A stretch of 64,000 nucleotides of DNA. It comes from a virus. Taxonomy: Duplodnaviria; Caudoviricetes. Shown here piece after piece: positions 6,872 through 50,690 of this stretch. Every line of letters starts with the position of its first letter. The stretch's first letter is position 1. The stretch is from the IMG/VR virus record IMGVR_UViG_3300032227_000993; one strand, given 5' to 3'. Below the pieces are notes generated by a model that saw nothing but the letters and a program-made list of their open reading frames with translations, ran no database searches and had not been told where the DNA came from. The position numbers and the translations under genes were made by a program.

Positions 6872-7371
6872 TAAAATGCCTTGTTGTAATCTACAATCTC
6901 ACAGTTGCGACTAACGTCTTTGACAAAGTAAACACACTCTGGATGATCGCCTTCGCCCAATGGCACACATAACATCTGTCCGTTTTTTAGCTTAGGAGCA
7001 TACCACGCTACATCTTGATACACATCTAGTATTTCTACATCTAAGAAACTTGGCCTAAAACTTGACAGCGGATTAAACTGAAATGCCTTGAATCCGCGGT
7101 CGTTAAGTGCCGACAGCGGAATAACTTCCAAGTCGCCTAGGTCTGGTTCGCCGATCAGCAGTTGCCAGTCCACAGGCATACGCACACGATGGTCGCCAAT
7201 ACGCAATACCAGAGCTGGTGCGTTGAACGATTCTAAAAATATCAACGGAATGTAGTGATAATCTGGGTCTTGCGGATTGCTATTATCTAAGATAGCAAAT
7301 CGCATATCATCTACTTCTTCTGGTAAATGATCTAAATCGTAAGGGCTATTATCAAGCGTTAATATTCTCAT
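6871..7371 (-). CDS. hypothetical phage protein (166 aa)
   Basis: Start re-set to ATG 7371 (MRILTLDN), which lies 6 nt after a TACAAT -10 box (7378..7383). Confidence 0.75.
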   Translation of the reverse strand: MRILTLDNSPYDLDHLPEEVDDMRFAILDNSNPQDPDYHYIPLIFLESFNAPALVLRIGDHRVRMPVDWQLLIGEPDLGDLEVIPLSALNDRGFKAFQFNPLSSFRPSFLDVEILDVYQDVAWYAPKLKNGQMLCVPLGEGDHPECVYFVKDVSRNCEIVDYNKAF

Positions 7372-17888: not shown

Positions 17889-20510
17889 CTATTTTGTTAC
17901 GCCTGCTAAGAATTTAATACGATCCATCATGTCCGCATCTTGTGGCTCAACTGCTTGTAACTTGCCTGAGTGTCCGTATTGTCCTGTTAGGGCTGTACTT
18001 TCTTCTAGTTCATCTTTGTGTTTACCAATTTCACTTGGATCAGATGAGTCAATAACTTTGCCTGTTGCAGGATCAGTTTTACGGTAGCCGCCGCCCATTT
18101 TTACTTTGGCACGTTTAGTAGGAACCATCTTCTTAGTAATAGGATCGTAAACCATATTACCTTCTTCCAACCAGTTACCGCCACCAACTGTTTCAGCAAT
18201 GCCGTAGTCATCTTCTAAGTCCATCTTAATAATGCCTAATACTTTTTCAATATCTAATTCGTGGCGTAATTCTGGACGCTCTTTAGTAAGTTGCTCTACA
18301 CGATCGTGAATTTGATCACTAACAAATTTTTCTACGTTTGATTTTGGATTGGCATAGATATCATAGATGTCTACGTTGCCGCGAGCAATTTCTTGTAGTG
18401 TTAAATCTACTTCACTCATTCCGCCTTCTTCCAAGCGGTCTACTGCTTTGGCGATACCCTTGCTACGCAAATATGATTTGTGGTCATCGTCATAGCCATC
18501 ATCCTCAACCCCAGGATTATGGGCCTGTGCTAACTTGTCTGCGGCACGGCTAGCTAAATTGCTTGCTGAATTTTTATGGCTTGAACTACCAGCTCGTTTA
18601 ATGTAGCTCTTTAGGGTGTCTGGGCTAAGTTCGTCGACTTGCTCTTCAGCAAATGCTTCCGGTGGATTTTCTTTAAGCATACGCTCAACTTCATTAATCC
18701 AACCACTGACATCGCTTGAACCAATTTCATCTACATCACCTACATAGTCAGCAACATTGTCAATCGCGGCCATAACTGACTGTGGGCCATACGTTGCTAA
18801 TAAATCTGAACGTTGCATCATAATACGACGGGTAATAGCTGCAGCTACTGGACTATCTTCTTCGTTTAGGCCAGCAATTTGCTTGGCTTTGTTTAGTTCT
18901 TGACCTGTCATGTTAGTGACTTCGCCGCGTGGGTCTACTGGTTTGCCATTGACTCGTTTAACTTTTTCCCAGTCACCTTCGTGACTCCAAGCTTCAGGTT
19001 TGCCATCTGGTCCTAATTTAACTGTATCGCTGGCTTCAGTGAATTCTTCTAAGTGGCCTGCGTCTTGGCTGCCAACTGGGTTAGCAGCATAGATTGCTTT
19101 GATTTGACGGTCTAATTCTTCTGCTTTTGATGTGTTGCCAACTGCTCGAGCAAACATACGTAAATTTTCCAAACGGTCAAGACGCTCCTGGTCTTTAAAC
19201 ATTACATCGCCGGCACTTTCACGCAACTGTTCTTGAACTGGTTGTTCTGCTGGTGCTGGATTACTTGCTGTTTTTAATTGTCCAATTACTTGCGCAATCG
19301 CCGAATTATTTTTTAATTCTTCAAGACGATTAAGAATAACAGTACGAGCATCAGCATTGGCATCTTGTTGAGCTAACTCGCCCAATTGATCAAATAATTT
19401 ATCATCACCAAATACATCATACAACTGTTCTGTTACGTCACCGGCATCAGGACCCACAGGTAATTCGTTAGATAATAGCGCAACTAATTTTTGTTGCTTT
19501 TCTTCAGTATCGGGAACAGCCCATGTGCCTTCAATAATAAGGTCCATCATACCTTCAAATACGTTGATTTCTTTCATAGCGGTTTCCTGTTTTAGTCTTG
19601 CTAGTAGTGGTAATGCTTGTTCAATGCGACTGTCAATGTTTTGTTCAATAAACATATGACGTAAGTCTTCAATAATAACATCTTCGTCACTTAATTCTGC
19701 TGGATTCCAATTTTCAAAATATTTTTTGTATCCAGTTTTGTTAGACAAACTTTTAAGAGTCTGATGTAAATTGGTGTAGTGCTCAGTGGCCTGCTCGACC
19801 AACTGTGCTGTTTCACCTTCAAAGATTCTGCCCTGGTTGGCACGTTTAAAACGAGCAAGCAAGGCCATTTCTTCAACAATAGTGGCAATATGTTGTCCGC
19901 GAGCGTCATAAGGACGTCCGCCTTGTCGAACGTGTTCTAACATTGCTTTGCCTGCTGACAATGATTTAAATGGCATTTTGTAACGTTCGCCATCTGTTGT
20001 TTCAATAAACAAACTTTCAATGTAGCGGAAGCGAGCATCTTGCTCACCTAAATTCTTTTTGTGCTTGATCATCAAGCGAGCTTGTGTAGCATCAGCGTTG
20101 TATGATACATCACGTTTGCCGGCCCAAGATTCAAATATGCCTTCTTTGATAGCAGCTTGACCTTGCATACTGTATTTTAATTTGTTTAAATTTTGTAAAC
20201 TAAATGAAAGTAAATTGCGTTTGGAAAATTGGCGTAACTGATACAAGAAATCAAACCATTCTTTTTTATCGTCGCCTTCCATGCTTTTGCCTACGTTGTC
20301 GCCAAAATACACACACATATCATTTCCGTCGCCCAGCAGAATTGCTACGGTGCCATAATCTTTACCAGATTCGCCTGTGTAATCAAATGAAAATACAGTG
20401 GCCTCGTCTGGTGTGGGCGCTGGTCTACCTGATGCGTCAAGAGCTTCGGGGTTAAAATTTCTAGTAATTAACAGGTCATTTAACTGTTTGCCTGGTGAGG
20501 TTTGTGCCAT
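17889..20510 (-). CDS. large putative virion (internal head) protein, 873 aa
   Basis: Acidic, modular, many [LIVM]-x-E sites; TAAATA 7 nt upstream; adjacent to terminase. Confidence 0.55.
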   Translation of the reverse strand: MAQTSPGKQLNDLLITRNFNPEALDASGRPAPTPDEATVFSFDYTGESGKDYGTVAILLGDGNDMCVYFGDNVGKSMEGDDKKEWFDFLYQLRQFSKRNLLSFSLQNLNKLKYSMQGQAAIKEGIFESWAGKRDVSYNADATQARLMIKHKKNLGEQDARFRYIESLFIETTDGERYKMPFKSLSAGKAMLEHVRQGGRPYDARGQHIATIVEEMALLARFKRANQGRIFEGETAQLVEQATEHYTNLHQTLKSLSNKTGYKKYFENWNPAELSDEDVIIEDLRHMFIEQNIDSRIEQALPLLARLKQETAMKEINVFEGMMDLIIEGTWAVPDTEEKQQKLVALLSNELPVGPDAGDVTEQLYDVFGDDKLFDQLGELAQQDANADARTVILNRLEELKNNSAIAQVIGQLKTASNPAPAEQPVQEQLRESAGDVMFKDQERLDRLENLRMFARAVGNTSKAEELDRQIKAIYAANPVGSQDAGHLEEFTEASDTVKLGPDGKPEAWSHEGDWEKVKRVNGKPVDPRGEVTNMTGQELNKAKQIAGLNEEDSPVAAAITRRIMMQRSDLLATYGPQSVMAAIDNVADYVGDVDEIGSSDVSGWINEVERMLKENPPEAFAEEQVDELSPDTLKSYIKRAGSSSHKNSASNLASRAADKLAQAHNPGVEDDGYDDDHKSYLRSKGIAKAVDRLEEGGMSEVDLTLQEIARGNVDIYDIYANPKSNVEKFVSDQIHDRVEQLTKERPELRHELDIEKVLGIIKMDLEDDYGIAETVGGGNWLEEGNMVYDPITKKMVPTKRAKVKMGGGYRKTDPATGKVIDSSDPSEIGKHKDELEESTALTGQYGHSGKLQAVEPQDADMMDRIKFLAGVTK

Positions 20511-37292: not shown

Positions 37293-37321
37293 AGTATATG
37301 TTAAATGTGATTAGTTGTCAA
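37293..37321 (-). promoter_or_regulatory. sigma70 promoter (leaderless)
   Basis: TTGACA-17 nt-TATACT; ATG 7 nt later. Confidence 0.85.
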
Positions 37322-37569
37322 CCTATTAAGGCGGCAAAGGTAACCATTTGCTCTAAATTGGTCAGCAGGTCTTGGGCCTGTTGTTCCAGCTCTTTGTACT
37401 TGATGGTTGTTTTTTTGATCCGGCGGCATTCTACCGCTTCCTTGCTGATTTCTGTTACTACCCGATCAACCCCAGCCAGCATTTTGCGTAGGTCGCGGTA
37501 GGCTACCTTGCTTTTTACAGTGGCTATCTGTGCTTCCACGGTGTTTATACGCTGTAATATCTCATCCAT
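37318..37569 (-). CDS. small helical hypothetical protein (83 aa)
   Basis: Start re-set to ATG 37569 (MDEILQRIN); the track's TTG start is the -35 box. Confidence 0.7.
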   Translation of the reverse strand: MDEILQRINTVEAQIATVKSKVAYRDLRKMLAGVDRVVTEISKEAVECRRIKKTTIKYKELEQQAQDLLTNLEQMVTFAALIG

Positions 37570-37576
37570 AACACTA

Positions 37577-37605
37577 ATTATACGGTAAACGGATTTTATT
37601 GTCAA
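37577..37605 (-). promoter_or_regulatory. perfect consensus sigma70 promoter (leaderless)
   Basis: TTGACA-17 nt-TATAAT; ATG 7 nt later. Confidence 0.9.
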
Positions 37606-37630
37606 CCTTTAGGTAGCTAAATACACTACT

Positions 37631-38305
37631 ATGCTGTTTATTGATAACAAATACACTCGTTGGTATTACGATATTGTAAATCGTGCCCAAACACGAGTGT
37701 TTTTAGATAGTTACAGCGAAGCCCATCATATTATTCCCCGCAGCTTAAACGGTAAGGATACCGAAGATAATTTAGTAAAACTTACTGCTCGTGAGCATTT
37801 TATTGCACATTGGCTATTAACTAAAATGGTAAGTTCTAAAAAACATCAATATCAAATGTGGAACGCATTTAGTTGTATGCTGTACCGCGAAAGGCCTGGA
37901 CAAGAACGTTACAAAGTTACCGGCAGAATATTTGAAAATATCAAAACGGCTGGATCTAAAATTAAAAGTATTAGAATGTCTGGTGCTGGAAATCCTATGT
38001 ATGGTCGTAAGGGAGAGTTATGCCCTGCGTTTGGCAGAAAGTGGACAGAAGAACATCGTAAAAATGCCAGTGCATCTCACAAGGGTATTATTAGAACTCA
38101 AGAATCGCGAGCTAAACAAAGTGCTTCGGTTAAAGGTAGGAAAAAAAGCGATTTACACAAAGAAAAAATAAGCGAGGCACTTACTGGAAAAAATAATCCT
38201 ATGTACGGCAAAAAATTAAGTGCTGAAACTATTGCTAAACGAACTACAACCATGAAAAAAAATAAACTTGCTAAGAAATTAGCAAAGGAGAATCAAAATT
38301 CCTAG
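37631..38305 (+). mobile_element. free-standing HNH homing endonuclease with NUMOD3 repeats
   Basis: EAHHIIPRS...NLVKLTAREHFIAH; four NUMOD3-like repeats and two NPMYG motifs; AT-richer than its flanks. Confidence 0.88.
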
Positions 38306-39653
38306 GCTCTCACTATATCGTCCTAACCGGACCTCAGACTATCAGTATTTAGACAGTATTATTAAAGAACAATATACCGTTGGCGGAGTCGACGTATATG
38401 TTCACAAGTATCTTGGTCCTGTGGTAGATAAATCAGGTACGCCCGGCAATGCCGATGCTACGCTACCGGTGTACAATCAAGAAAATCCTCTATTCATTGA
38501 AGATCTCTTATTGTTAGAAAATCGCGATAGAGCCTACGATCCTGACGTTTATCAGATGCGGATGGTTTATTCGCAACAGGACATTGACTTTGACTTAACA
38601 CAGTTTGGTCTATTCTTAAACAACGATACGCTATTTTTAACGACTCATTATAATTATATGATAGATTGTTTTGGTCGTAAATTAATGTCAGGCGATGTGT
38701 TAGAGTTACCCAACTTAAAAGATTACAATCCGCTGAATAGCAATATTCCTCGAGCCCTGCCTAAATATTATGTGATCCAAGATGCGGCTTTTGCTGCCGA
38801 GGGTTTTAGTCAAACTTGGTTGCCTCACTTGTGGCGTGTCAAAGCCACGCCCATGGTCAATGCTCAAGAGTACAAGCAAATTACCGATGCTCCATTTATG
38901 CCAGAAAATATCTGGGATCCTGGCAATCTTTATCCTCAAGGCGACATTGTCAACAACGGTGGCACTTACTATCAGGCCAAACAACCTGTTCCACCCGGCA
39001 CTCCTATTCTTGATCCCAATTACTGGACCTTGATCACTGAACCCAACAAGGTCTCAGATACTTCATCTACCAAGAACAAAGATCTTGCCATCAATGATGC
39101 CATTGTTGTGCAGGCCAATGTGGATGTTCCGTTGAGCGGATATGACAATGTAAAATTTTACATTTTGCCTACCAACATCGAAGGACAGCCTGCTGGAGTG
39201 GGATTAAATGTCAGCGATGGCAAAGTCACAGTGGATGGAACACAGGGCGGAGACGGCACGTCACCAACTGGATTTGGCTACACCTTGGGTTACCTGACTG
39301 GCACAGACATGGCTCCCAACGGCCTGCCGGTCACTCCTGGAGTTGCCTTTCCAAATAATCCTACAGTAGGAGATTATTCATTGCGTTTAGATTATTTCCC
39401 TAATCGTTTATTCCGTTACAACGGCATTGGTTGGATCAAAATTGAAGACAATGTTCGTACTCCGCTGGATTGGGGTTACCCTAATACCACACAGCGCAGT
39501 AGTTTTGTCAATAATCCCTACACAGTCAACACATCTGACCAGGGAGCTATTCCAAGCCGTCAGAGCCTGAGTGAGTTGCTCAAGCCTTTGGCTGACAACG
39601 GCAATGATGGCGGCAACAAAACACCTAATCCAAGACCACCGGGGGTATTGTAA
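38298..39653 (+). CDS. neck protein (T4 gp14-like), probable ATT start
   Basis: Open frame extends 41 codons upstream of the track start to ATT 38298 (IPRLSLYRPNRTSDYQYLD...VHKYLGP); SD AAGGAG at 38285..38290; DFDLTQFG, GDVLELP, PHLWRVK motifs. Confidence 0.8.
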   Translation: MPRLSLYRPNRTSDYQYLDSIIKEQYTVGGVDVYVHKYLGPVVDKSGTPGNADATLPVYNQENPLFIEDLLLLENRDRAYDPDVYQMRMVYSQQDIDFDLTQFGLFLNNDTLFLTTHYNYMIDCFGRKLMSGDVLELPNLKDYNPLNSNIPRALPKYYVIQDAAFAAEGFSQTWLPHLWRVKATPMVNAQEYKQITDAPFMPENIWDPGNLYPQGDIVNNGGTYYQAKQPVPPGTPILDPNYWTLITEPNKVSDTSSTKNKDLAINDAIVVQANVDVPLSGYDNVKFYILPTNIEGQPAGVGLNVSDGKVTVDGTQGGDGTSPTGFGYTLGYLTGTDMAPNGLPVTPGVAFPNNPTVGDYSLRLDYFPNRLFRYNGIGWIKIEDNVRTPLDWGYPNTTQRSSFVNNPYTVNTSDQGAIPSRQSLSELLKPLADNGNDGGNKTPNPRPPGVL

Positions 39654-41047
39654 TGCAACAATTTTTTTACGACAGTCAAATACGTCGTTACTTAATACAG
39701 TTTACTCGTATGTTTTCAGGATTCAGCGTTGAATACGGCCGTAACGAATCTGGACAAGGTGGCGACACGCTGTATCGTGTGCCGGTTAGATATGGTGATG
39801 CCAGCAGGCAAGCGCAAACTATCATACAAGAAAATAGTGCCAACAATATGCCAGCTACTCCAATGATGAGCTTTTACATAACAGGCCTGGACTTTGATCG
39901 CCCTCGCATGCAGAATCCCACATTTGTAAACACAATCAGTGTTAGACAACGTACCTATGACGAAACCACTGGCACTTACGAAACCACACAGGGCAATGCC
40001 TTTAACATTGATAGATATATGCCGGCTCCTTACAAGTTGAGTATTAACCTGGATATCTGGACCAGCAATACCAATCAAAAAATGCAGTTGTTAGAGCAAA
40101 TTTTGCCCATGTTTAATCCCAGCTTGGAAATCCAAAGCACAGATAACTTTTTAGACTGGACCAGTTTGAGCATGGTCGAATTGGTCAGCACCGGTTGGGA
40201 CAGTCGTACTATTCCCCTGGGCACAGAAGATCCAATCAGTATCAGTACACTTAAATTCACCTTGCCTATCTGGCTGAGCTTGCCAGCCAAAGTTAAAAAA
40301 TTGGGCGTGGTCGAAAAAATTATCGCCAGTATGTTTGATGGCAAGGGTGACATGATCAATGCCATTACCAACAGTGATTTGTTGCTGGGTACAAGACAAA
40401 AGATTACTCCCTATGGTTACCAAGTTGTTTTGATCGATAACAAATTGCAAATTTTAACACAATCAGCCGTGGTTGATGTGCCCAATTATGATTTGCCGGC
40501 GCCAGATCCTGTGGCCAGTAGCAATTTATTATGGACACCGGTGGTCAATATGTATGGTACCTTGCGCCCGGGTATCAGTATGGTGGCCTTGACACAGGAA
40601 GACGAGTCACAAGTGATTGGTACCGTGGCATTTGATCCCACTGATGATAGATTTTTATTGTTTACTGTTGATATCGATACCATACCACCCAACACCTTGG
40701 GTCCAGTCAGTGCTGTTATCAATCCCTTGGCCAGTGGTCCTGACGCTGGATTAGCGCCAGCGGCCGCAGGACAACGCTATTTGTTGACTGAATCCACAGG
40801 CAGCGAAGATGGCTATGCCGAAGCCTGGGCTGGTGTTGATGGCGAACCGTTGATAGCTGTGGCCAATGACATCATTGAATACGATGGTCAACGGTGGCTG
40901 GTTTCTTTTAGTGCTGCGTCAAGTCCTGTAAATACACAATATGTTACAAATATCACAACCGAAATACAGTACAGGTGGACCGGCACAATGTGGGTCAAAT
41001 CATACCAGGGTCTCTATCCAGGTGGCCAATGGGATCTAATCATCTAA
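39653..41047 (+). CDS. tail completion/terminator protein (T4 gp15-like) with C-terminal extension
   Basis: FFYD.QIRRY, VPVRYG, PAPYKLSINLDIW, LEQILPMFNP. Confidence 0.82.
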   Translation: MQQFFYDSQIRRYLIQFTRMFSGFSVEYGRNESGQGGDTLYRVPVRYGDASRQAQTIIQENSANNMPATPMMSFYITGLDFDRPRMQNPTFVNTISVRQRTYDETTGTYETTQGNAFNIDRYMPAPYKLSINLDIWTSNTNQKMQLLEQILPMFNPSLEIQSTDNFLDWTSLSMVELVSTGWDSRTIPLGTEDPISISTLKFTLPIWLSLPAKVKKLGVVEKIIASMFDGKGDMINAITNSDLLLGTRQKITPYGYQVVLIDNKLQILTQSAVVDVPNYDLPAPDPVASSNLLWTPVVNMYGTLRPGISMVALTQEDESQVIGTVAFDPTDDRFLLFTVDIDTIPPNTLGPVSAVINPLASGPDAGLAPAAAGQRYLLTESTGSEDGYAEAWAGVDGEPLIAVANDIIEYDGQRWLVSFSAASSPVNTQYVTNITTEIQYRWTGTMWVKSYQGLYPGGQWDLII

Positions 41048-42136: not shown

Positions 42137-42493
42137 TTAGACTGTGATTTCTACCCAACTAGTTGTTGCTTCATCCCAACGATATGATTTACCGTCTGTT
42201 GGATATGGAGTAGGTGCTTCCCAAGTCCAGGTAGATTGATTTAATATCCAACTTGCGTAGGGTTGCGGAGCGTAAAATACGTCGTTCACTTGGTCGTATG
42301 TGTAACCAATTCCTGCGTAGTTTCCGCGTAGTGCTATACCGCCATCTGGTAATCCATCTGGTCCGTAATGTACATTACCACGGGTGTTGTAACTTGTTTG
42401 AATCCACTCACCCGGGGTGGTATCTACGAATTCAGCTTCAGCGGCAATAACCTCAGTTACCGTACTGTTTGCTACTTTTGCGTAATATGACAT
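42137..42493 (-). CDS. virion-associated small protein (YAGIGYTYD...WEAP motif)
   Basis: Trp/Pro-rich motif commonly found after Gly-rich tail proteins; SD and TAAATA upstream. Confidence 0.7.
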   Translation of the reverse strand: MSYYAKVANSTVTEVIAAEAEFVDTTPGEWIQTSYNTRGNVHYGPDGLPDGGIALRGNYAGIGYTYDQVNDVFYAPQPYASWILNQSTWTWEAPTPYPTDGKSYRWDEATTSWVEITV

Positions 42494-42528
42494 TGTTGTT
42501 TCCTTTGATCGTATTTTGTATTTACTAT

Positions 42529-43497
42529 TTAAGCGGTGTAAGTACCTGAATCAGTAAATTTGATAATTGTGTTTGCACCTGATTGAGTGATAGTTGGTGA
42601 TCCTGTTGTAATTCCAGAGTAATTTGCTGTTGGCACAGATAATATAACTACTCCTTTTCCACCTGACCACCCACTAGCTTTACCTGCGCCGTTACCAGTA
42701 TTAGGTGTGCCTGTATTTGCATTGGTTGATCCACCTGCAGCATAAATTACAGCATTTCCTGTAATACTGTTAGATCTTCCAGCGCCTCCAGCCGCACCAC
42801 TGCTGCCGGCGCCACCACCATTACCGGCACTTACACCGCCTTGACCAGCTGTGCCATATCCTATACCATTAGTAGTATTTCCTTGAGTTGTTCCGCCTCC
42901 CGAGCCAAAAGTAGTTCCATTCCACCCACTGCCGCCTCCTGAACCACCGGCGGCACCATTTAAGTTAGAATTTCCTGATCCTCGTCCACCGCCTTGTGCT
43001 GTATCTACTCCAAATGATGAATTGGTTCCGGATGATCCATCTCCAATAACCTGATATCCTGAACCAGCTCCGCCGCCGCCAACTGTAGCTGTATATTGTA
43101 CTCCTTTAGTCAATGTTACTGAAGCAATTTCAACCATTCCGCCTGCTCCGCCGCCACCAGCATTTTCACCATAACCAGATCCACCGCCGCCGGCAACTAC
43201 CAAGGCACTAATACTGTATGATGTAGCTGCAGATTTTATCGAAACCCAAGCACCGCCAATATAACCTTCCAACGCAGGAATGGAGGTATTGTATCGTAGT
43301 GCTCCATTTGTAGGACTAGCCGGGCGTTGTGCAGTGTTTCCGACTGGAACCGTAATAGCTCCTGTGCTGTTGCATGTAATATTTTGACTAGAGTCAATAG
43401 TCAGCGCGGCATTGCCATTAGTTTGTAGTTGTAATACTCCAGATGTATCTGAAGTTTCTATTAATCCTGATACGGATGCGTTTATTGTAGTTGTCAT
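42529..43497 (-). CDS. glycine-rich tail-fibre/adhesin protein
   Basis: VVAGGGG...AGGM Gly-rich domain; N-terminal adaptor; start re-set to 43497. Confidence 0.7.
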   Translation of the reverse strand: MTTTINASVSGLIETSDTSGVLQLQTNGNAALTIDSSQNITCNSTGAITVPVGNTAQRPASPTNGALRYNTSIPALEGYIGGAWVSIKSAATSYSISALVVAGGGGSGYGENAGGGGAGGMVEIASVTLTKGVQYTATVGGGGAGSGYQVIGDGSSGTNSSFGVDTAQGGGRGSGNSNLNGAAGGSGGGSGWNGTTFGSGGGTTQGNTTNGIGYGTAGQGGVSAGNGGGAGSSGAAGGAGRSNSITGNAVIYAAGGSTNANTGTPNTGNGAGKASGWSGGKGVVILSVPTANYSGITTGSPTITQSGANTIIKFTDSGTYTA

Positions 43498-43778
43498 GGT
43501 AATGTAATCCAAGTATTAGTAATATAAATTTCCATGTAGGAAAGTGTAGTGTTGTAGCGTAGCATCCCGCTAACTGGCGATGCTGGGCGTTGTGCTGTAT
43601 TACCAACTGGAATTGTAAATGATCCAGTAGAATTTGCTGTGATATTTTGTGCGGTATTTATAGTTAGCGCAGTTGTGCCGTTAGTTTGTAAGGCAAGATT
43701 ACCTGTAGCATCGGCGGTTTTGACGATGGCTGTTGGTAGTAATACTGTGCCTGGTTGTGCGTTGATTGTAGATGGCAT
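43494..43778 (-). CDS. tail-fibre adaptor-only protein (94 aa)
   Basis: Homologous to the N-terminus of 42529..43497 (LQTNG...PVGNTAQRP...RYN). Confidence 0.65.
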   Translation of the reverse strand: MPSTINAQPGTVLLPTAIVKTADATGNLALQTNGTTALTINTAQNITANSTGSFTIPVGNTAQRPASPVSGMLRYNTTLSYMEIYITNTWITLP

Positions 43779-45049
43779 TATGCTGTGTAACTCCCCGAAT
43801 CGTTAAATGTAATAATGGTATTTGCACCCGATGGAGTGACCGTTGGATTTCCTGTTACAGTTCCAGAGTAACTTGCTGTTGGTACAGAAATAACAACTAC
43901 TCCTTTTCCGCCTGCTCCACCATAGTAAATGTTTCCATCACCCGAAGCTCCGCCGCCACCGCCACCGCCACGATTTGTACCACCAGGGCCGCCATTTGAA
44001 CCTGTAGCGCCACCATTGCCACCGCCCCCTGAACCTCCACCAGCAGAAACACCTCCCTGTGGAGTATAAGCTGAGCCACCACCGCCTCCAGCATAAGTTA
44101 TGCCAGTAATGCTAGACACTGCACCGGCACCACCTGCACCAGCAGTACTTCCGCTGTAATTGCCGCCAGCACCTCCGGCACCACCACCACCACCGTTTGG
44201 ATATGGAGGCCCAGCAAGACCGCCGGCGCCGCCTTGGTTTCCTTGTCCTGCTGTTCCAGCAGCATTAGACGCAGAGAATGAACCCGCACCGCCTCCAGAA
44301 CCTCCAGAATTGCCGCCACCGTTGTTGCCGCCACCGCCGCCACCTACGGCTGTAGTTAATCCAGTGATGGAAGAAGGGTTTCCGTTTGAACCGTTATTGC
44401 CTGCTGTACCACTAGCACCGCCACCACCAACTGTTACTGTGTACTGTGTGCCACGAGTCAACGTGGTTGAACCCGTCACCATGCCACCAGCTCCACCACC
44501 AGCTCCACCTGCGTTAAATCCGCCAAGCGGTGTTCCACCTCCGCCACCACCAGCTACTATTAAATAACTTGCAGAATAAGTATTGGCAACAACTGTGCCA
44601 GTAGAATTAGAATTTGTTGTGTTACTACCAACAGCATTAGTAGCTGTGACACGGCAATTAATGGTTGATCCAATATCTCCCGCAACACAAGTGTAAGTGT
44701 TAGCGTTAGTACCTATGTTAGTAACACCGTTGCGTTGCCATTGATATGAATAGCCGGTTGGTGAGTTTGACCATGTGCCGGTTGATACTGTCAAGACTTG
44801 TGTATCTCTTGCTGTGCCAGTAACAGCTGGAGCAACAGAGTTAATTGGATAAAACCCTGTGGCTGCAGAAACTGTTGTGCCGTTAACCAATAATCCAGTG
44901 GTGCCATTGACTTGTGTACCAGGTTGTACTGTCAACACGTTGGCTGTGTATGTTATGCCAGGTGACAAATAAGTGGTTATTTGACTGAGTGGCAAATTTG
45001 TGGAATCTGGGAAAGTTATACCGGAAATTGATCCAACTGTGGTAGGCAT
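43778..45049 (-). CDS. tail-fibre/adhesin protein: Ig-like domain plus Gly-rich domain
   Basis: P.VTGT...VSTGTW...YSYQWQR Ig-like motif; Gly-rich C-half sharing its C-terminus with 42529. Confidence 0.7.
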   Translation of the reverse strand: MPTTVGSISGITFPDSTNLPLSQITTYLSPGITYTANVLTVQPGTQVNGTTGLLVNGTTVSAATGFYPINSVAPAVTGTARDTQVLTVSTGTWSNSPTGYSYQWQRNGVTNIGTNANTYTCVAGDIGSTINCRVTATNAVGSNTTNSNSTGTVVANTYSASYLIVAGGGGGGTPLGGFNAGGAGGGAGGMVTGSTTLTRGTQYTVTVGGGGASGTAGNNGSNGNPSSITGLTTAVGGGGGGNNGGGNSGGSGGGAGSFSASNAAGTAGQGNQGGAGGLAGPPYPNGGGGGAGGAGGNYSGSTAGAGGAGAVSSITGITYAGGGGGSAYTPQGGVSAGGGSGGGGNGGATGSNGGPGGTNRGGGGGGGASGDGNIYYGGAGGKGVVVISVPTASYSGTVTGNPTVTPSGANTIITFNDSGSYTA

Positions 45050-45052
45050 TTT

Positions 45053-45226
45053 TTATCCTTGAGCCGGTGGAAGTGGACTATTGCCAGCCGCTAACCACGC
45101 TTGATATTGTTGCCAGTCTGTGTTTGCTTCGTCGTTTGGGATAATAGCATTATCGGGCAACCGAATAATTATAGAATCGTTAATTGTACCGTCAATATTT
45201 TTTATTTGCTGATAGTTATATTCCAT
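45053..45226 (-). CDS. small tail-fibre assembly/chaperone-like protein (57 aa)
   Basis: Below the track cut-off. MEYNYQQIKNIDG...IPNDEANTDWQQYQAWLAAGNSPLPPAQG*; paralogue of 46446..46658. Confidence 0.7.
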   Translation of the reverse strand: MEYNYQQIKNIDGTINDSIIIRLPDNAIIPNDEANTDWQQYQAWLAAGNSPLPPAQG

Positions 45227-45229
45227 TTA

Positions 45230-46435
45230 TTATAACTCCGCTGATACAGTAAACATATAAGAAATTCCATAATATGCAACAGCATACATTCTTACATAAA
45301 CACGAGCTGATGTCGCATTTTGAGTATTGGTATTTACGTTTTGTGTTTGTTCCGACCCGGCTCCTAAGCCTGTTACTTTTCCAGAATTTCCAGCAACATC
45401 AAAAAGTACTAAAGTTGGGCTGGTTCTCATAACAACTGCCAATGGAAAAACACTACTTGCAATACTTCCGGTAGGAGCAACTCCCCAACTTTGTTGAATT
45501 GCATTTTCATTATTTACTGCTGTCCCAGGAACAATAGCATACTCGTATGATTTTTGATAATAACGCTGACACAATATCAACTCACGACCATAGTCACGGA
45601 AATCAAAACTTGTTGCTTGTGTGCCAACTTCAAATTGTACGCCGGTTATGTAAAATGTTGCGCCGTTTGTACCAACTACACTGACTGCGCCTGTAGTTGA
45701 GAAAAAGTTTCCAGCAACCCAGGCTCCTGCAGTCCCACTATAGGTTGAGCCAACACCTAATCCAAAGTAAACCCAAATACCGCCGGTGTTATCTGTAGCC
45801 CAAGTTCCTGTTGTATCTCCGGTAATTGTTATGGTTTCGTATTCCCAGGTGTTTGCGGAATTAATTGTATAGCTAAATGGGTAGGAACGATTTCCTGCTG
45901 CATTTCTTAATGAGCCGCCAAATGTTCCAGTTAACGAACTACGCACCCAAAAAGACAAAGTAATTGTTTTTGCACTGGCTGTGCCCCAAGCTAAATCAGC
46001 AACATTGTTACCTTCGATAACTTGATACATTGGATAAAAATCGCCGGCGGCTACTGTATAGGCAGATTGGGACGTCACTCCTAAGTATTTTGTAAATCCC
46101 GTTGGCGGTGTTACTGAACCAGCGTTTTGTTGAGCGATTAATTTTCCAGGTGTTGTTTGCTGAACAGCCCATCTATCAACGGTGTAACCGCTAATAGTAT
46201 TTGCAGTTGCGGTGCCGGCATAGCGTTGGTCAATCGTCATTCCGCCGTTAATAATACGATTCTCAAATCCAAATGTATTGACAGCACTAACTGAACCAAC
46301 AAAATTAGCATTTTGACTAGTGCTTATTGTTAATGCTGTGGTTGTGCCGTTGGTTTGGAATACCAAGTTACCTGTGGTATCCGATGTACTTACAAATCCG
46401 GTTGTTAGTGTGTTGCCTGCTGATATTGTGCTCAT
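45230..46435 (-). CDS. tail-fibre protein with carbohydrate-binding-like domain (paralogue A)
   Basis: NRIINGGMTIDQR...DRW...TLSFWVRSS...ITGVQFE...CQRYY. Confidence 0.72.
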   Translation of the reverse strand: MSTISAGNTLTTGFVSTSDTTGNLVFQTNGTTTALTISTSQNANFVGSVSAVNTFGFENRIINGGMTIDQRYAGTATANTISGYTVDRWAVQQTTPGKLIAQQNAGSVTPPTGFTKYLGVTSQSAYTVAAGDFYPMYQVIEGNNVADLAWGTASAKTITLSFWVRSSLTGTFGGSLRNAAGNRSYPFSYTINSANTWEYETITITGDTTGTWATDNTGGIWVYFGLGVGSTYSGTAGAWVAGNFFSTTGAVSVVGTNGATFYITGVQFEVGTQATSFDFRDYGRELILCQRYYQKSYEYAIVPGTAVNNENAIQQSWGVAPTGSIASSVFPLAVVMRTSPTLVLFDVAGNSGKVTGLGAGSEQTQNVNTNTQNATSARVYVRMYAVAYYGISYMFTVSAEL

Positions 46436-46445
46436 AATCTATTTC

Positions 46446-46658
46446 CTATGGCAAAGTAGCAACATAGGCTTTTGCTTCCTCTGGTGACATTAAAATTCCG
46501 TCAGCAGTTTCTAGTGTGGCCGTTTCATTGTTTATTTGTGATTTAAATAACTCATAATCTGTATTTGAAGGAACAAAAGGAATGGCTGCATTATCTTCAA
46601 TTCTTAAAACCGAAGTACAATCTATTTTTGGTAGCAATGGGGCAATTAATTTATACAT
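46446..46658 (-). CDS. small tail-fibre assembly/chaperone-like protein
   Basis: IP...NTDY motif; follows fibre paralogue B. Confidence 0.65.
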   Translation of the reverse strand: MYKLIAPLLPKIDCTSVLRIEDNAAIPFVPSNTDYELFKSQINNETATLETADGILMSPEEAKAYVATLP

Positions 46659-47810
46659 TTATAACTCCGCACTTAATGTAAGAGCAACATACGCTGTGCC
46701 ATTTGCGTTTGTTCTAAGTCCAGACCCAGTAAACTGTAATCCTACTCCGTAGTAAGATGGGCCAGAACGAACCGTTGGAGCTACAGCATGATGCCCTTCT
46801 GCTCCTCCAGATAAAATAGTTACAGTTGGAGTGGTTCTCATTTGGTATGTCCAGGCTAATCCACCTGAATTTAAACTTGTATACGCAGCATCATATCCTT
46901 GAGTAAAGTAATATGTATTACTACCAACAAAATATCTCTGACACAATTCAAGCTCAGTTCCATAGCTACGGAAATCAAAGTTTGTTGCTTGTGAGCCAAC
47001 TTCAAACTGTACACCAGTAATATACCAAGTAGCTCCGTTTGTGCCAACTACACTTGTAGCGCCTGTAGCTGAAAGATAACTAGCGCCAACCCATGTGCCA
47101 GCGGTTGAAGAATATGTTGCTCCGGCACCCAAAGAAAATTCTACTTTAGCGCCAGTACCGTTAGTTGCGCCAAGCCAAGTTCCACTTGTTGGGCCAATAA
47201 CAGTAATTGATTTTTGTTCCCATGTATTTGCGGCAGAAATTGAATAGTTAAATGGATAAGAATAATTAAAAGCAGAATTATAAAAACTACCGCCAAAAGT
47301 TCCTGTTAGAGAACTGCGAACCCAGAATGATAAAGTAGCTGTTTTAGCATTGGCTGTTCCCCAAGCCAAATCTGCCCAGTTGAATCCTTCAATACCTTGT
47401 GCCACTCCAAAATAATCACTGGCACTAACAGAATAGGCTGATAAAGAAGTTATACCTAAATAGTTGGAAAACCCTACTGGCGGTGTTACCGAGCCAGCGT
47501 TTTGTTGTATAGAAAATTTAGAAGCTGCAGTTAGTAAACTTTGCCATCTGTCTAATGTATAAGCACCTTGTGTTGGGGTTACACTAGCCCCAGCGTTACG
47601 TTGGTCGATAGTCATTCCGCCGTTAATAATACGATTCTCAAAACCAAATGTGTTAAGCGCACTGACTGATCCAACAACATTGGCGTTTTGACCTGTTGTC
47701 AATGTTAATGCTGTAGTTGTGCCGTTGGTTTGGAATACCAAGTTACCTGTGGTATCTGAGGTGCTTACAAATCCTGTAGTAAGAGTATTTCCAGCGGCTA
47801 TTGTGCTCAT
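46659..47810 (-). CDS. tail-fibre protein (paralogue B)
   Basis: Near-identical N-terminus to 45230..46435; divergent C-terminus. Confidence 0.72.
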   Translation of the reverse strand: MSTIAAGNTLTTGFVSTSDTTGNLVFQTNGTTTALTLTTGQNANVVGSVSALNTFGFENRIINGGMTIDQRNAGASVTPTQGAYTLDRWQSLLTAASKFSIQQNAGSVTPPVGFSNYLGITSLSAYSVSASDYFGVAQGIEGFNWADLAWGTANAKTATLSFWVRSSLTGTFGGSFYNSAFNYSYPFNYSISAANTWEQKSITVIGPTSGTWLGATNGTGAKVEFSLGAGATYSSTAGTWVGASYLSATGATSVVGTNGATWYITGVQFEVGSQATNFDFRSYGTELELCQRYFVGSNTYYFTQGYDAAYTSLNSGGLAWTYQMRTTPTVTILSGGAEGHHAVAPTVRSGPSYYGVGLQFTGSGLRTNANGTAYVALTLSAEL

Positions 47811-48986
47811 TTATAGTATTATCCATCGTTGTCCTGCGGCCACGCTGACTTGTACGTTGTTGGCGTATGTCATTGGTCCTACTGATAAGCCGTTTTGACC
47901 TGCGGCTATTGTGAGATTAGCTGAAATTGTTGTTGTAGTAATGGTAACTGAATTATTACCTGAAGCTACGCCAGTTAATTGGCTACCATTACCAATAATG
48001 TAATTGCCAGTAACATTACCGGTGGCACTTACTATACCCACGGTACGAACGTTGCCACCTTGTACATTGCCAGTGATGCTTACATTGGCACCTGTGTTGA
48101 CATTACCTGAGCCGTTGGGTGTGAGTACAATGTTGGCATTTGAGGCTGAGGTTTGTATGTCAAGTTGTGCTGAATCAACAATCGCGCCACTGATAATTAA
48201 ATTTCCAGCAGTAACGTTACCAGTGACACTAACACTGGTTCCTGTTATGACTCCGCCTACTACACTGGCGGCAGTAACAGCACCTGTAGCACTAATTAAA
48301 CCAGCTGTTCTTAAATTTCCACCCTGAACGTTGCCAGTGACACTTACCAAGCCGGTGACATATTCGCCTGTGGTTGCCCATACTGCCACGTTGGCGGTTC
48401 CTCCAACGCTGGCTGTAATATTACCACCTGAGCTGACTACTGTTACGTTACTTGTGCCGTTATTAATGTTACTTGATGTAGTACTAACCCCGGTTAATAA
48501 TGCTCCGTTACCTAAAATATAATTACCGGTTACGTTACCTGTGGCTGAAACATACCCTACTGACGTCACATTGCCGCCAGACATATTACCAGTAACACTC
48601 ATATTACCAGTTGTTGTTGAATTACCTGTTGCGTTTGCAGTAACTACCGTATTGCCGCCAACTACCAAACTATTAGCATTAGCAGATAGTGTTGTGCCAC
48701 CTAAATAAATTGTATTTGCGCTAACATATACACTTGCCCATAATGCTGTTGGCGAACCTAAATTATATACGCCGTTAGCGGATGGTAAAAGATTACCAAC
48801 TACTAAATTACCTGTAGCACTAATAGTAGTTGCTGTAATATTATTTGTTGCTGCGATATTATTGGCACTGACGTTGGCGCCGGTATTGGTCAACACAGTC
48901 CATGCCGTAAGTGTAGTGCTGTAGATGTAAATTACACCATTGACATTGGCCTGTTGACCATTGGTTGGGTTGGTTGGAAATGCCAT
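47811..48986 (-). CDS. Asn/Gly/Thr-rich tail-fibre protein
   Basis: GN(V/I)T beta-repeats; MAFPTNP N-terminal adaptor. Confidence 0.7.
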   Translation of the reverse strand: MAFPTNPTNGQQANVNGVIYIYSTTLTAWTVLTNTGANVSANNIAATNNITATTISATGNLVVGNLLPSANGVYNLGSPTALWASVYVSANTIYLGGTTLSANANSLVVGGNTVVTANATGNSTTTGNMSVTGNMSGGNVTSVGYVSATGNVTGNYILGNGALLTGVSTTSSNINNGTSNVTVVSSGGNITASVGGTANVAVWATTGEYVTGLVSVTGNVQGGNLRTAGLISATGAVTAASVVGGVITGTSVSVTGNVTAGNLIISGAIVDSAQLDIQTSASNANIVLTPNGSGNVNTGANVSITGNVQGGNVRTVGIVSATGNVTGNYIIGNGSQLTGVASGNNSVTITTTTISANLTIAAGQNGLSVGPMTYANNVQVSVAAGQRWIIL

Positions 48987-50690
48987 TATGTTCTCCCTAC
49001 TGCTACTTCAATGACACCAGATTCTGTGCTGTCATAATTTTCTAAGGCTTTGCCAATGATACAACTTGGTTGGTATTTCAACATATCTAAAGCCTGGGCT
49101 ACTCCTGGAATATCGCTGGCCACCAATCTATCACCTTTGTTAATTTTACCAACAACTTTGCAAGGAACTCGTCCAACCAAGGCCACTACAACAGCATTAG
49201 TGCAATCAAGCGTGGCGTTCATCAGGTAGGAAGGATTTGTACTTACAATACCTGCTACAGCTGGCGAGTGACTTGTGGTTGTTACGGTCACTTCTTCAAC
49301 ACCGCCAAATTCTACTACTGTGCCTGGCTCATAGTCTTCGTCGGCGCAGTACATTTCAGCCAAGTCAGCATATTGAGCACTAGTTGCCTTGGCAAACACA
49401 GTATTGAAGTAATTGGTTGAACTACCAATGTTGCCGGCCACATTGCCCAGAGTGACGATGTTGCCCACAGTGATTGTGCCATTGGCCACACTTAAATTAC
49501 CGCCGGCAATGTTACCAGTGGCACTGATCAAACCAACTGTACGTATATTGCCACCTTGTACATTGCCAGTGATGCTGACATTGGCGCCGGTGTTGACATT
49601 ACCTGAGCCATTTGGAGTTAACACAATGTTGGCATTGGCAGCTGAGGTTTGAATATCAAGTTGTGCTGAGTCAACAATCGCGCCACTGATAAGTAGGTTT
49701 CCAGCGGTGACGTTGCCAGTACCAACTGTGGCACTTCCACCTGTAATGGCACCAGTAGCACTTACTAATCCTACAGTTGTAATATTGCCAGCTTGTACAT
49801 TACCAACAACACTTACTGTACCGCTTGTATCTATGCGTAGTCTTTCGCTACCACCTGTGGCCATTGTTATTGGGGTGTATGTTCCAGTTCCTGTAATAGC
49901 TGCAATTAAAGCGGATGCACTAGCATTTTGATAAATGGAAAATGTACCTGAATTTGTAGGGTCCGTAGCACCATAAGCAGTAAATATTGAACCAGCACCA
50001 GAACCATTTGGTATTGCCGAAATTCTAGTTATGCCGTTTGCAGTGCTGGATTGAAACATCACACGACTAGCAACAGTAGCATTACTAAAATCACCAGTAA
50101 TACGATTACTAGTACCAGTAAAGACTAAGTTGCCGCCCGTTTGAATATTTCCACCTATTACATTACCAGTAACACTAGCAAAACCAGCTGTACTAATATT
50201 ACCATAAGTTAATGTACCAGTTACACCTAAGTTGCCGCCAATGGTGGCGTTGCCTGTGACAGCCAATGTGGTAAAGCTGGTTGGGAAACTTTGATCTACC
50301 CAGATGTTGCTGGTGCCATCATTGGTGTATTGGTACTTGACTCCAGAAAAACTGTCGTACCAGAAGCTACCTGGATTGACTCCTGTGGGTGCTGTATTGG
50401 CCTGTGTGGTCCACGATAGGCTGCCACTGACTGTGATGCCAGTTAATGCGCTACCATTACCAATAAAATAGTTACCTGTTACGTTGCCGGTTGCGCTAAT
50501 TAAACCAACTGTACGAACGTTGCCACTTTGTACGTTGCCAGTTACGCTGACATTGGCTGGAGTATTGACATTACCTGAGCCATTTGGAGTTAACACAATG
50601 TTGGCATTGGCAGCTGATGTTTGTATGTCAAGTTGTGCTGAGTCAATGATCGCACCACTCAATATCAAGTTACCGGCAGTAATATTGCCT
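48008..50690. repeat. three dispersed ~210-bp repeats (about 48008..48224, 49511..49720, 50480..50690)
   Basis: All encode SGAI(V/I)DSAQLDIQTSA.NANIVLTPNGSGNVNT; clear nucleotide similarity. Confidence 0.85.

Follow-up and report, generated by a model that had tools for sequence, protein, structure and literature searches.

We analysed a 64,000-nucleotide (nt) stretch of viral DNA (Duplodnaviria, Caudoviricetes; IMG/VR record IMGVR_UViG_3300032227_000993), hereafter the window, in which an HNH-NUMOD3 homing endonuclease gene directly precedes a gene for a gp14-like virion protein. The comparison of this locus with its relatives suggests, with a probability that we put at about 80%, that the endonuclease gene belongs to a promoter-less homing cassette, which uses the leaderless start of its host gene, carries a replacement Shine-Dalgarno (SD) sequence, an ATT start codon and recoded codons 2-4, and on its decay leaves a leadered gene that starts with ATT. 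All coordinates are those of the 64,000-nt stretch and the plus strand is meant unless stated otherwise; L-numbers denote metagenomic viral contigs or loci, and X1-X4 denote sequencing runs and their DNA contigs. The features on which the argument depends are the following.

37618..37623, plus strand: TAAATA, a T4-late-promoter-like motif and predicted promoter; the same motif stands 7 nt 5' of the gp14-like ATG in empty alleles
37631..38305, plus strand: HNH-NUMOD3 homing endonuclease gene, 224 amino acids (aa), from an open reading frame (ORF) with Pfam and PHROG matches
37635..38309, plus strand: mobile cassette, 675 nt in place of the 8 nt CACGTTTA of the empty allele, from the comparison with the L004, X2 and X3 contigs
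38285..38290, plus strand: predicted SD sequence AAGGAG of the gp14-like gene, in the C-terminal codons of the endonuclease, 7 nt 5' of ATT
38298..38300, plus strand: ATT, the probable start codon of the gp14-like gene, aligned with the ATG of all homologues
38298..39653, plus strand: gene for a gp14-like virion protein (neck or stopper-like), 451 codons plus stop, from homologues, PHROG and Foldseek
38300..38309, plus strand: recoded patch, ATG CCA CGT TTA changed to ATT CCT AGG CTC, from the comparison with L004

Anatomy of the locus

The TAAATA motif is followed by seven nucleotides (cactact) and the ATG of the nuclease at 37631. The nuclease ORF (37631-38305) ends in ...AAT CAA AAT TCC TAG, and a 7-nt spacer, aatcaaa, separates AAGGAG from the ATT at 38298-38300. 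The initial annotation had described the TAAATA at 37618 with the nuclease ATG 7 nt further on, as well as an ATT start at 38298 that overlaps the nuclease stop and has AAGGAG 7 nt upstream in the last nuclease codons, and the sequence agrees with it at every coordinate. The nuclease ATG has no SD sequence. Since TAAATA is absent from the inside of the nuclease ORF, one late transcript would have to serve both the nuclease and the gp14-like gene.

The nuclease ORF contains an HNH domain (Pfam, 23.4 bits against a cut-off of 21.4; residues 28-49) and a NUMOD3 domain (Pfam, E 8.9e-15), matches PHROG 655 'homing endonuclease' with E 2e-46, and is 62% identical to the endonuclease of L029; a sequence search of the PDB with the nuclease returned no match. 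Its GC content of 36%, compared with 44-45% in the neighbouring genes, fits a foreign origin. The ORF begins with an ATG and ends with a stop of its own, in a frame other than that of gp14. The domains, the precise presence or absence of the insert, its patchy distribution and the occurrence of degenerate copies are those of a free-standing HNH homing endonuclease gene (HEG), and by these signs the nuclease appears to be one, borne neither by an intron nor by an intein.

Empty and filled alleles

A megablast of the locus against 50,697 phage records gave no match. The phage of the window is known only from metagenomes and belongs to a clade of uncultured freshwater jumbo phages. Its relatives at the protein level are the jumbo phages Atu_ph07, PA5oct and those of the 121Q/PBECO4 group, and hundreds of much closer relatives are present among metagenomic viral contigs. 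One of these, L004, shares 98.3% identity with the window on either side of the insert and represents an empty allele, in which ...ggtagcTAAATAcactactATG is followed by CCA CGT TTA TCA CTA TAT. The window and L004 match perfectly over 503 nt to the left and 467 nt to the right of the junction, while the two genomes differ by 1.7% overall. Contigs from run X2 (another sample of the same study) and run X3 (a different freshwater study) join position 37634 to 38310 via CACGTTTA and are likewise empty alleles. The filled allele is present in a 19.6x contig of run X1, the probable source run, and this contig does not differ from the window. A search for RNA runs with this sequence returned only DNA runs.

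Start regions were read in the 80 loci nearest to the window and in another 80 from around a second subclade. Of the 103 distinct ATG alleles compared, 93 have 7 nt between TAAATA and ATG (referred to as ATG_N7), and the spacer measures 5 nt in seven, 6 nt in two and 4 nt in one. These alleles continue with CCA CGN/AGA, have neither an SD sequence nor a purine-rich tract, and share the consensus C.aTAAATAca..ACTATGCCa.G; conservation in the region is highest from the promoter motif to the end of MPRLSLY. The form TAAATA-N5-7-ATG CCx AGx, which the initial annotation had predicted for endonuclease-free relatives, was thereby found. Its further claim that gp14 was a leaderless gene stands in part: TAAATA-N7-ATG without an SD sequence is present in the empty alleles, and from this spacing of the promoter motif the gene would be leaderless there or nearly so.

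Of the full-length HEG-bearing alleles, 14 are distinct; in 13 of these, the nuclease ATG follows TAAATA after 4-7 nt, at the position that the gp14 ATG has in the empty alleles, and three of the 13 nuclease proteins begin with MP, i.e., gp14's proline codon has been kept. These positions and the empty alleles of L004, X2 and X3 support the earlier proposal that an element was inserted at the gp14 start and captured both promoter and AUG.

The promoter reading of TAAATA draws on its position before structural genes and on its conservation, not on counts. The motif stands 5' of many structural genes in the window, with leaders that are mostly 19-32 nt and in a few cases 5-7 nt long, and this placement would fit a T4-type late promoter; TAAATAC is not over-represented across the window (seven found, ten expected) and TAAATA-N7-ATG occurs in it only three times. 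Three more genes have TAAATA just 5-7 nt 5' of their ATG, at 20510, 4693 and 27673, all on the minus strand, and one such TAAATA-close gene encodes an 873-aa head-region protein. Leaderless-looking late genes may thus be recurrent in this phage.

Start codon and identity of the gp14-like gene

The ATT at 38298 opens a frame that reads I-P-R-L-S-L-Y-R-P-N and is 41 codons longer than the mechanical ORF call (410 aa from GTG 38421), and the open extension described in the initial annotation was confirmed by reading the sequence. The frame itself opens just five codons 5' of the ATT, after a TAG stop at 38280-82, and contains no ATG, GTG or TTG there. Its first canonical start is codon 42, the GTG at 38421, which lies past ten residues (P2, L4, S5, P9, D14, D19, G29, G30, H36 and G40) that are invariant in 40 diverse homologues. 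The MPRLSLY N-terminus that the initial annotation had given for homologues proved to be real: their alignments begin at residue 1 of the ATT-started protein. Moreover, positions 2-213 of PHROG 11591 (virion structural protein) match residues 3-216. Of the 51 distinct ATT alleles, 40 lack an upstream ATG, GTG or TTG in frame, and in the other 11 the upstream candidate starts precede the promoter motif or are without an SD sequence. In E. coli reporters, AUU behind an SD sequence yielded approximately 1/6 to 1/8 of the AUG level, and its output was approximately doubled beside the stop of a translated upstream cistron (PMC3592434). Initiation at AUU 38298 is, as we infer, well supported by comparison.

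It could be argued that the protein starts at GTG 38421 without the first 41 residues and that the upstream frame is a decaying relic, because this GTG is the first canonical start in frame. We rejected this start on account of the conservation of the 41 N-terminal residues and consider it very improbable. The first 41 residues are identical in the window and L004 and include the ten that are invariant across the 40 homologues, beyond the start codon the nucleotide changes at the junction are silent, 51 alleles have this intact N-terminus behind ATT, and no SD sequence stands 5' of GTG 38421. The chance that the T at 38300 is an assembly or sequencing error for G is practically negligible. The sole support for such an error is the rarity of ATT starts, while the 19.6x contig of run X1 also has the T and ATT recurs in 51 scattered distinct alleles from many samples, and hence it is not a sequencing error.

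The assignment of the host gene as coding for a gp14-like neck protein is reasonable but tentative. The AlphaFold model, which was built with 40 homologues, has a mean pLDDT of 59.5, with mostly 70-90 in the N-terminal 260 residues. With this model of mean pLDDT 59.5, the best Foldseek matches were T4 gp13/gp14 neck complexes (E 1.6e-4, TMt 0.54), and the P1 connector and other stopper or neck proteins were also matched; the matches ranged from E 1.6e-4 to 5.6e-4 and from TMt 0.48 to 0.57. Sequence searches of Pfam and the PDB gave no gp14 match, and the PDB search returned just weak tail-fibre-like matches to the C-terminal half. The gene neighbourhood includes a gp15-type gene (PF16724) directly downstream and an Ad2-type adaptor gene nearby, and the PA5oct orthologue was found in virions by mass spectrometry, according to its record.

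Recurrence and decay of the SD and ATT module

The 17-mer AGGAGAATYAAAATTCC is found in 100 viral contigs and in 71 of them it is followed by PRLS..., i.e., by the gp14-like gene with the same SD-N7-ATT junction, which is more than chance would give. SD-N7-ATT occurs in 51 distinct alleles, TTG replaces ATT in two more, and in L203, which bears a HEG, a variant SD sequence is followed by ATG. Upstream of this module stand either intact HNH-NUMOD3 genes of 220-264 aa, with two C-terminal variants, or remnants of 170, 86, 51, 40, 27, 21, 19, 11 and 6 codons, and then none. The remnants fuse the N-terminus of the nuclease (MIFNDSKYTRWY...) to its C-terminus (...NDNCKLILGELKF). In one of them, MIFNDSKYTRWY is joined to NDNCKLILGELKFHA, in another MIFN is joined to NHHCKSLSGESKFHA, and the 6-codon relic reads MSFKEN*. 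The series ends in alleles in which TAAATA is followed by 8-17 nt, the SD sequence and ATT, with nothing between. L088, with a 51-aa remnant, and L148, with a 247-aa gene, have identical gp14. The SD sequence and ATT thus travel with the nuclease gene and persist after its decay, as could be expected from the earlier claim that the element brings a replacement ribosome-binding site and a non-AUG codon.

These alleles also bear on the idea that gp14 is joined to the nuclease ORF or to ATG 37631 by group I splicing, frameshifting or bypassing, and that ATT is no start. The two frames do overlap, the gp14 frame being +1 relative to that of the nuclease with ATT 5 nt before the nuclease stop, and T4 gene 60, as outlined in bioRxiv 10.1101/2022.08.31.505936, shows that mobile elements can bring recoding signals. 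A permissive Rfam scan of the locus, however, gave just two matches (E 0.58 and 0.88), far under the gathering scores, with no intron or other family at E <= 1 beyond these; the group I intron or RNA reading was rejected since both are at chance level. The ORF also occupies the whole insert, leaving no space for an intron core. Frameshifting or bypassing into a fusion was rejected because AAT TCC TAG G contains no slippery site and because the frame and the position of the stop vary among alleles: elsewhere the nuclease ends 4 nt short of ATT or, in another frame, 10 nt past it, so that no recoding site is conserved. The HEG-free ATT alleles, moreover, retain the gene without any upstream ORF from which to shift or splice. 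A fusion of this kind is, in our opinion, extremely doubtful. The checks of what the initial annotation had named as refuting it gave PRLSLY in the homologues, no match to an intron model, and ATT in the 51 alleles and in the 19.6x contig.

An ATG at codon 6 (IPRLSM...) was observed in 14 of the 53 non-ATG alleles, e.g., L089, L091, L092, L094 and L095, compared with 5 of 90 ATG alleles. It may serve as a reserve start or merely reflect lineage.

Distribution on the gp14 tree

A FastTree phylogeny was built from 162 distinct gp14 sequences, with the first 12 alignment columns left out. At least 17 changes between the ATG and non-ATG states are required on this tree, compared with a mean of 44.7 and a minimum of 37 for shuffled labels. 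The non-ATG alleles are mostly shallow tips in ATG_N7 clades, as in the pairs window/L004, L029/L020, L205/L201 and L235/L199. Two of the samples were collected independently of the ATT pattern, and there 55 of 64 and 45 of 59 distinct alleles, respectively, were ATG_N7. Deeper groups that consist entirely of ATT alleles also exist on the tree; these were retrieved by the pattern and their weight is uncertain. The anatomy of the locus, the existence of empty, filled and scar alleles, their recurrence and their scattered distribution can be regarded as settled. On the strength of the sequences compared, the same may be said of repeated invasion and decay at the gp14 start, with the direction from invasion to decay following from the nested remnants.

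Proposed mechanism and origin of the leader

The promoter-less HNH-NUMOD3 cassette would enter exactly at the start codon of the gp14-like gene. As the nuclease ORF would begin at the host's ATG, it would inherit both the promoter and the leaderless start. At its 3' end the cassette would bring AAGGAG in the last nuclease codons, 7 nt before an ATT that replaces the ATG, and the silent recoding of codons 2-4 would create the nuclease stop and probably destroy the nuclease target, which in the empty allele may lie in or near ...ACTATGCCACGTTTA... The same late transcript would also yield the neck protein, through initiation at an AUU that is selected by the SD sequence and decoded as formylmethionine, possibly aided by coupling to the termination of the nuclease 5 nt downstream. 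The cassette would spread among phages by double-strand-break repair, with homology arms provided by the conserved promoter on the left and by the conserved coding sequence of the N-terminus on the right. When the nuclease decays, the SD sequence and ATT would have to stay, and a leadered, ATT-started gene would remain as a lasting scar. Promoter activity, the transcription start, initiation at AUU, the activity and target of the nuclease and the direction of events are the parts of this scheme that we infer.

Several observations weigh against this sequence of events. Most ATT loci were retrieved by a pattern that demands the SD sequence and ATT, which inflates the apparent conservation in the 53 non-ATG alleles (AGGAGAA at least 90% conserved, ATT conserved too, codons 2-6 varying freely). 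In L029, the one exception among the 14 full-length alleles, an ORF of approximately 110 aa without a family match lies between TAAATA and the HNH gene (L029 approximately 2000-2339), and the HNH ATG, again without an SD sequence, is 6 nt past the stop of this ORF; the capture of the ATG is thus not universal. The counts of changes on the tree give no direction. Both C-terminal variants of the nuclease run through the same AGGAGAATTAAAATTCC, though not in one frame (...KEN* versus ...GELKF..*), which fits a pre-existing translation-initiation region of the host that was entered by ORFs. Finally, the distant orthologues of PA5oct, Atu_ph07 and PBECO4 have TAAATA, a 20-30-nt leader, an SD sequence and ATG, and this leadered state could predate the leaderless one.

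The last two points also favour a different history, in which the leader with SD and ATT is an old native allele, the nuclease landed in that leader by an ordinary intergenic insertion, and the leaderless ATG form is a separate allele that is swapped by recombination. The HEG-free arrangement TAAATA-N8-17-AGGAGAAYTAAA-ATT, which is found in several lineages including deep ATT-only groups, is in line with this history. It is, nevertheless, rather unlikely, as 100 of the 123 distinct alleles in the unbiased samples are ATG_N7 while ATT appears as shallow tips in ATG clades, many HEG-free ATT alleles still carry fused N- and C-terminal nuclease fragments, and the near-isogenic partners of filled alleles are ATG_N7 and not leadered ATT. 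Even if the leader were native, the SD sequence and ATT still move with the nuclease into leaderless alleles, so that the present mechanism would be the same and only its origin would differ.

The recoded patch and the ATT codon

Six of the ten bases at 38300-38309 differ from L004, and all of these changes are silent except for that in the start codon. The recoded CCT AGG supplies the TAG stop of the nuclease. The same ATT CCT AGG CT also follows the nuclease of L029, a phage with only 71% identity in gp14 and with an ATG_N7 allele, L020, as its nearest neighbour. With regard to co-conversion of flanking markers, the window shares this sequence with L029, yet its wider flanks are identical to the empty allele. 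ATT alleles in general are enriched for CGC CTR AGY in codons 3-5. With its six changes in ten bases, the recoded patch is a likely homing-site immunity patch.

A further-reaching idea is that ATT is kept by selection and is not incidental, in which case a selfish element would have rewritten the initiation mode of an essential phage gene across a clade. We consider this possible, though on balance we doubt it. Two explanations could account for such selection. The host ATG may lie in the nuclease recognition site, so that the change from ATG to ATT would be an immunity mutation whose reversion might be suicidal while the nuclease is active. It is also possible that a leaderless AUG and an SD-led AUU are both discriminated against by initiation factor 3 (IF3), and that the cassette thereby preserves the original low, late, IF3-tuned translation of the gene. 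If ATT were selected, the scars would form a natural library of leaderless-to-leadered conversions.

Relation to known systems

In the common view, homing endonuclease genes of phages persist either within self-splicing elements or in gaps between genes. The locus described here would represent a third workable site, the start codon of a leaderless gene, paid for by a replacement ribosome-binding site and start codon. The initial annotation had seen in it a new insertion strategy that needs neither splicing nor an intergenic site. The anatomy of the locus is in agreement with this; the claim that it is wholly new is softened by precedent in T4 (PMC2988022). Seven seg/mob genes of T4 are promoter-less cassettes that harness upstream promoters, and the promoters of essential downstream genes are embedded in segG, segA, segE, mobB and mobC, which favours retention of the nuclease genes (PMC2988022). 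By analogy, these cassettes, such as segG before gene 32 and mobE between nrdA and nrdB, seem to be the nearest precedent for that of the window. In both, a free-standing nuclease gene (HNH in the window) without intron or intein rides on an upstream host promoter, the signals of a downstream essential gene lie inside the nuclease coding region, which makes deletion costly, and presence or absence is polymorphic among close relatives; late expression would be expected here. The T4 sites, however, are intergenic and their embedded signals are promoters. In the window, the site is the start codon of an apparently leaderless gene with no intergenic room, the nuclease uses the ATG of the host gene, and the embedded signals would be a ribosome-binding site and a non-AUG start that switch the host gene from leaderless to SD-led.

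A second comparison is offered by mobE in nrdA, a ribonucleotide reductase gene of Aeromonas phage Aeh1, as it is described in the accounts of Friedrich et al. 2007 (PMC2988022; PMC3045599). There, too, an HNH gene lies inside a coding gene without intron or intein, and the downstream part receives a new start at the insertion. Unlike gp14 of the window, nrdA of Aeh1 is, by these accounts, split into two polypeptides that reassemble, whereas here the upstream piece is the ATG (sometimes ATG CCx) and the protein is whole. No gp14 coding sequence was found 5' of the nuclease ORF and the gene beyond it is divergent, so that the locus does not qualify as a gene in pieces.

The mobile ORFs (mORFs) of fungal mitochondria (Glomus atp6, atp9, cox2 and nad3; Allomyces atp6; PMC3630166) similarly replace the end of a gene with a silently diverged copy, by which the gene stays functional and the target is destroyed. 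They replace the 3' end (the C-terminus) and leave the native end behind, whereas in the window the 5' end is replaced, over four codons, and no native end persists, as the displaced start serves the nuclease itself. In terms of initiation, the ATT of the gp14-like gene resembles that of infC and pcnB (PMC3592434). An AUU stands behind an SD sequence near the stop of the preceding cistron and the expected output is low and IF3-sensitive, and the signs seen at the gp14-like ATT, namely an aligned start, an SD sequence at working distance and no canonical alternative, would place it in this class. While infC and pcnB are cellular genes with autoregulation or limited expression, the AUU here appears to have been brought to a phage structural gene by a mobile element. 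The out-of-frame HNH gene in the methylase gene of mycobacteriophage ShiLan represents a different arrangement (PMC11855218).

In this locus, an essential structural gene would run from an ATT start, a natural case that recurs in dozens of independent contigs. Annotation pipelines truncate such genes, and here the mechanical call drops 41 conserved residues. A full life cycle of the element, i.e., empty, invaded, decaying and scar, can be followed at one site, and its alleles (leaderless ATG, SD-ATT, SD-TTG and SD-ATG) would form a natural set of constructs for the effect of the start mode on the dose of a virion protein. Homing endonucleases typically target highly conserved sequence, and the conserved promoter-plus-start sequence is a candidate recognition site of a new HNH specificity.

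Neighbouring features and other occupants of the site

Three further features flank or overlap the cassette.

37577..37605, minus strand: promoter of the divergent gene, TTGACA-17-TATAAT, predicted as sigma-70 type from 12 of 12 consensus matches; conserved in relatives
38268..38285, plus strand: predicted 7-bp hairpin TTGCTAA-GAAA-TTAGCAA, from a minimum free energy fold, inside the last endonuclease codons (KLAKKLAK)
39653..41047, plus strand: gp15-like tail sheath stabiliser gene (PF16724, E 1e-29), which overlaps the gp14-like stop in an ATGA-type junction and serves as a synteny anchor

On the minus strand, TTGACA (37605-37600), a 17-nt spacer and TATAAT (37582-37577) are followed by an ATG at 37569, 7 nt beyond the -10 hexamer. 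This ATG opens a divergent 83-aa gene (MDEILQRINTVE..., in the region 37318-37605), a layout that is kept in relatives; the mechanical ORF call places its start too far upstream, at TTG 37605. With TATAAT-N7-ATG, it resembles a leaderless early gene. This sigma-70 consensus promoter on the minus strand and TAAATA on the plus strand fill the 61 nt that separate the two divergent start codons, and hence there is no neutral intergenic DNA.

The hairpin repeat at 38268-38285 abuts the SD sequence and is conserved in nucleases of the KNKLAKKLAKEN type, including those of L029, L157 and L159. It may be a processing or stabilising hairpin, or a mere by-product of the coding of KLAKKLAK. A predicted pairing of the SD sequence with the recoded CTC TCA codons was dropped, because it is not conserved in L029.

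Other ORFs occupy the same hot spot. In L044 (214-798), L045 (2330-3010) and L074, another, endonuclease-like NUMOD3 ORF lies upstream of the promoter with TAAATA in its last codons, and the gp14-like gene keeps TAAATA-N7-ATG intact. The N-terminus of this L044-type ORF (YVYTYL...YYVGKG) is GIY-YIG-like by eye, and Pfam reported NUMOD3 only. A contig of run X4 joins the 3' end of an L044-type ORF to window-like gp14 sequence. In L217, L219, L223 and L225 (approximately 1021-1491), which belong to one subclade, a 157-aa ORF with an Mtd_N domain (major tropism determinant N-terminal) stands directly 5' of the gp14-like ATG; it has its own TAAATA and SD sequence, and the usual TAAATA-N7 is missing in these loci.

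A second difference in presence or absence was observed between the window and L004: a 6.7-kb block at 42203-48963 of the window is missing from L004, in which 6901-7011 continues at window 48964-49074, past the block. This block falls in a region of putative tail-fibre-like genes with a common N-terminal module.

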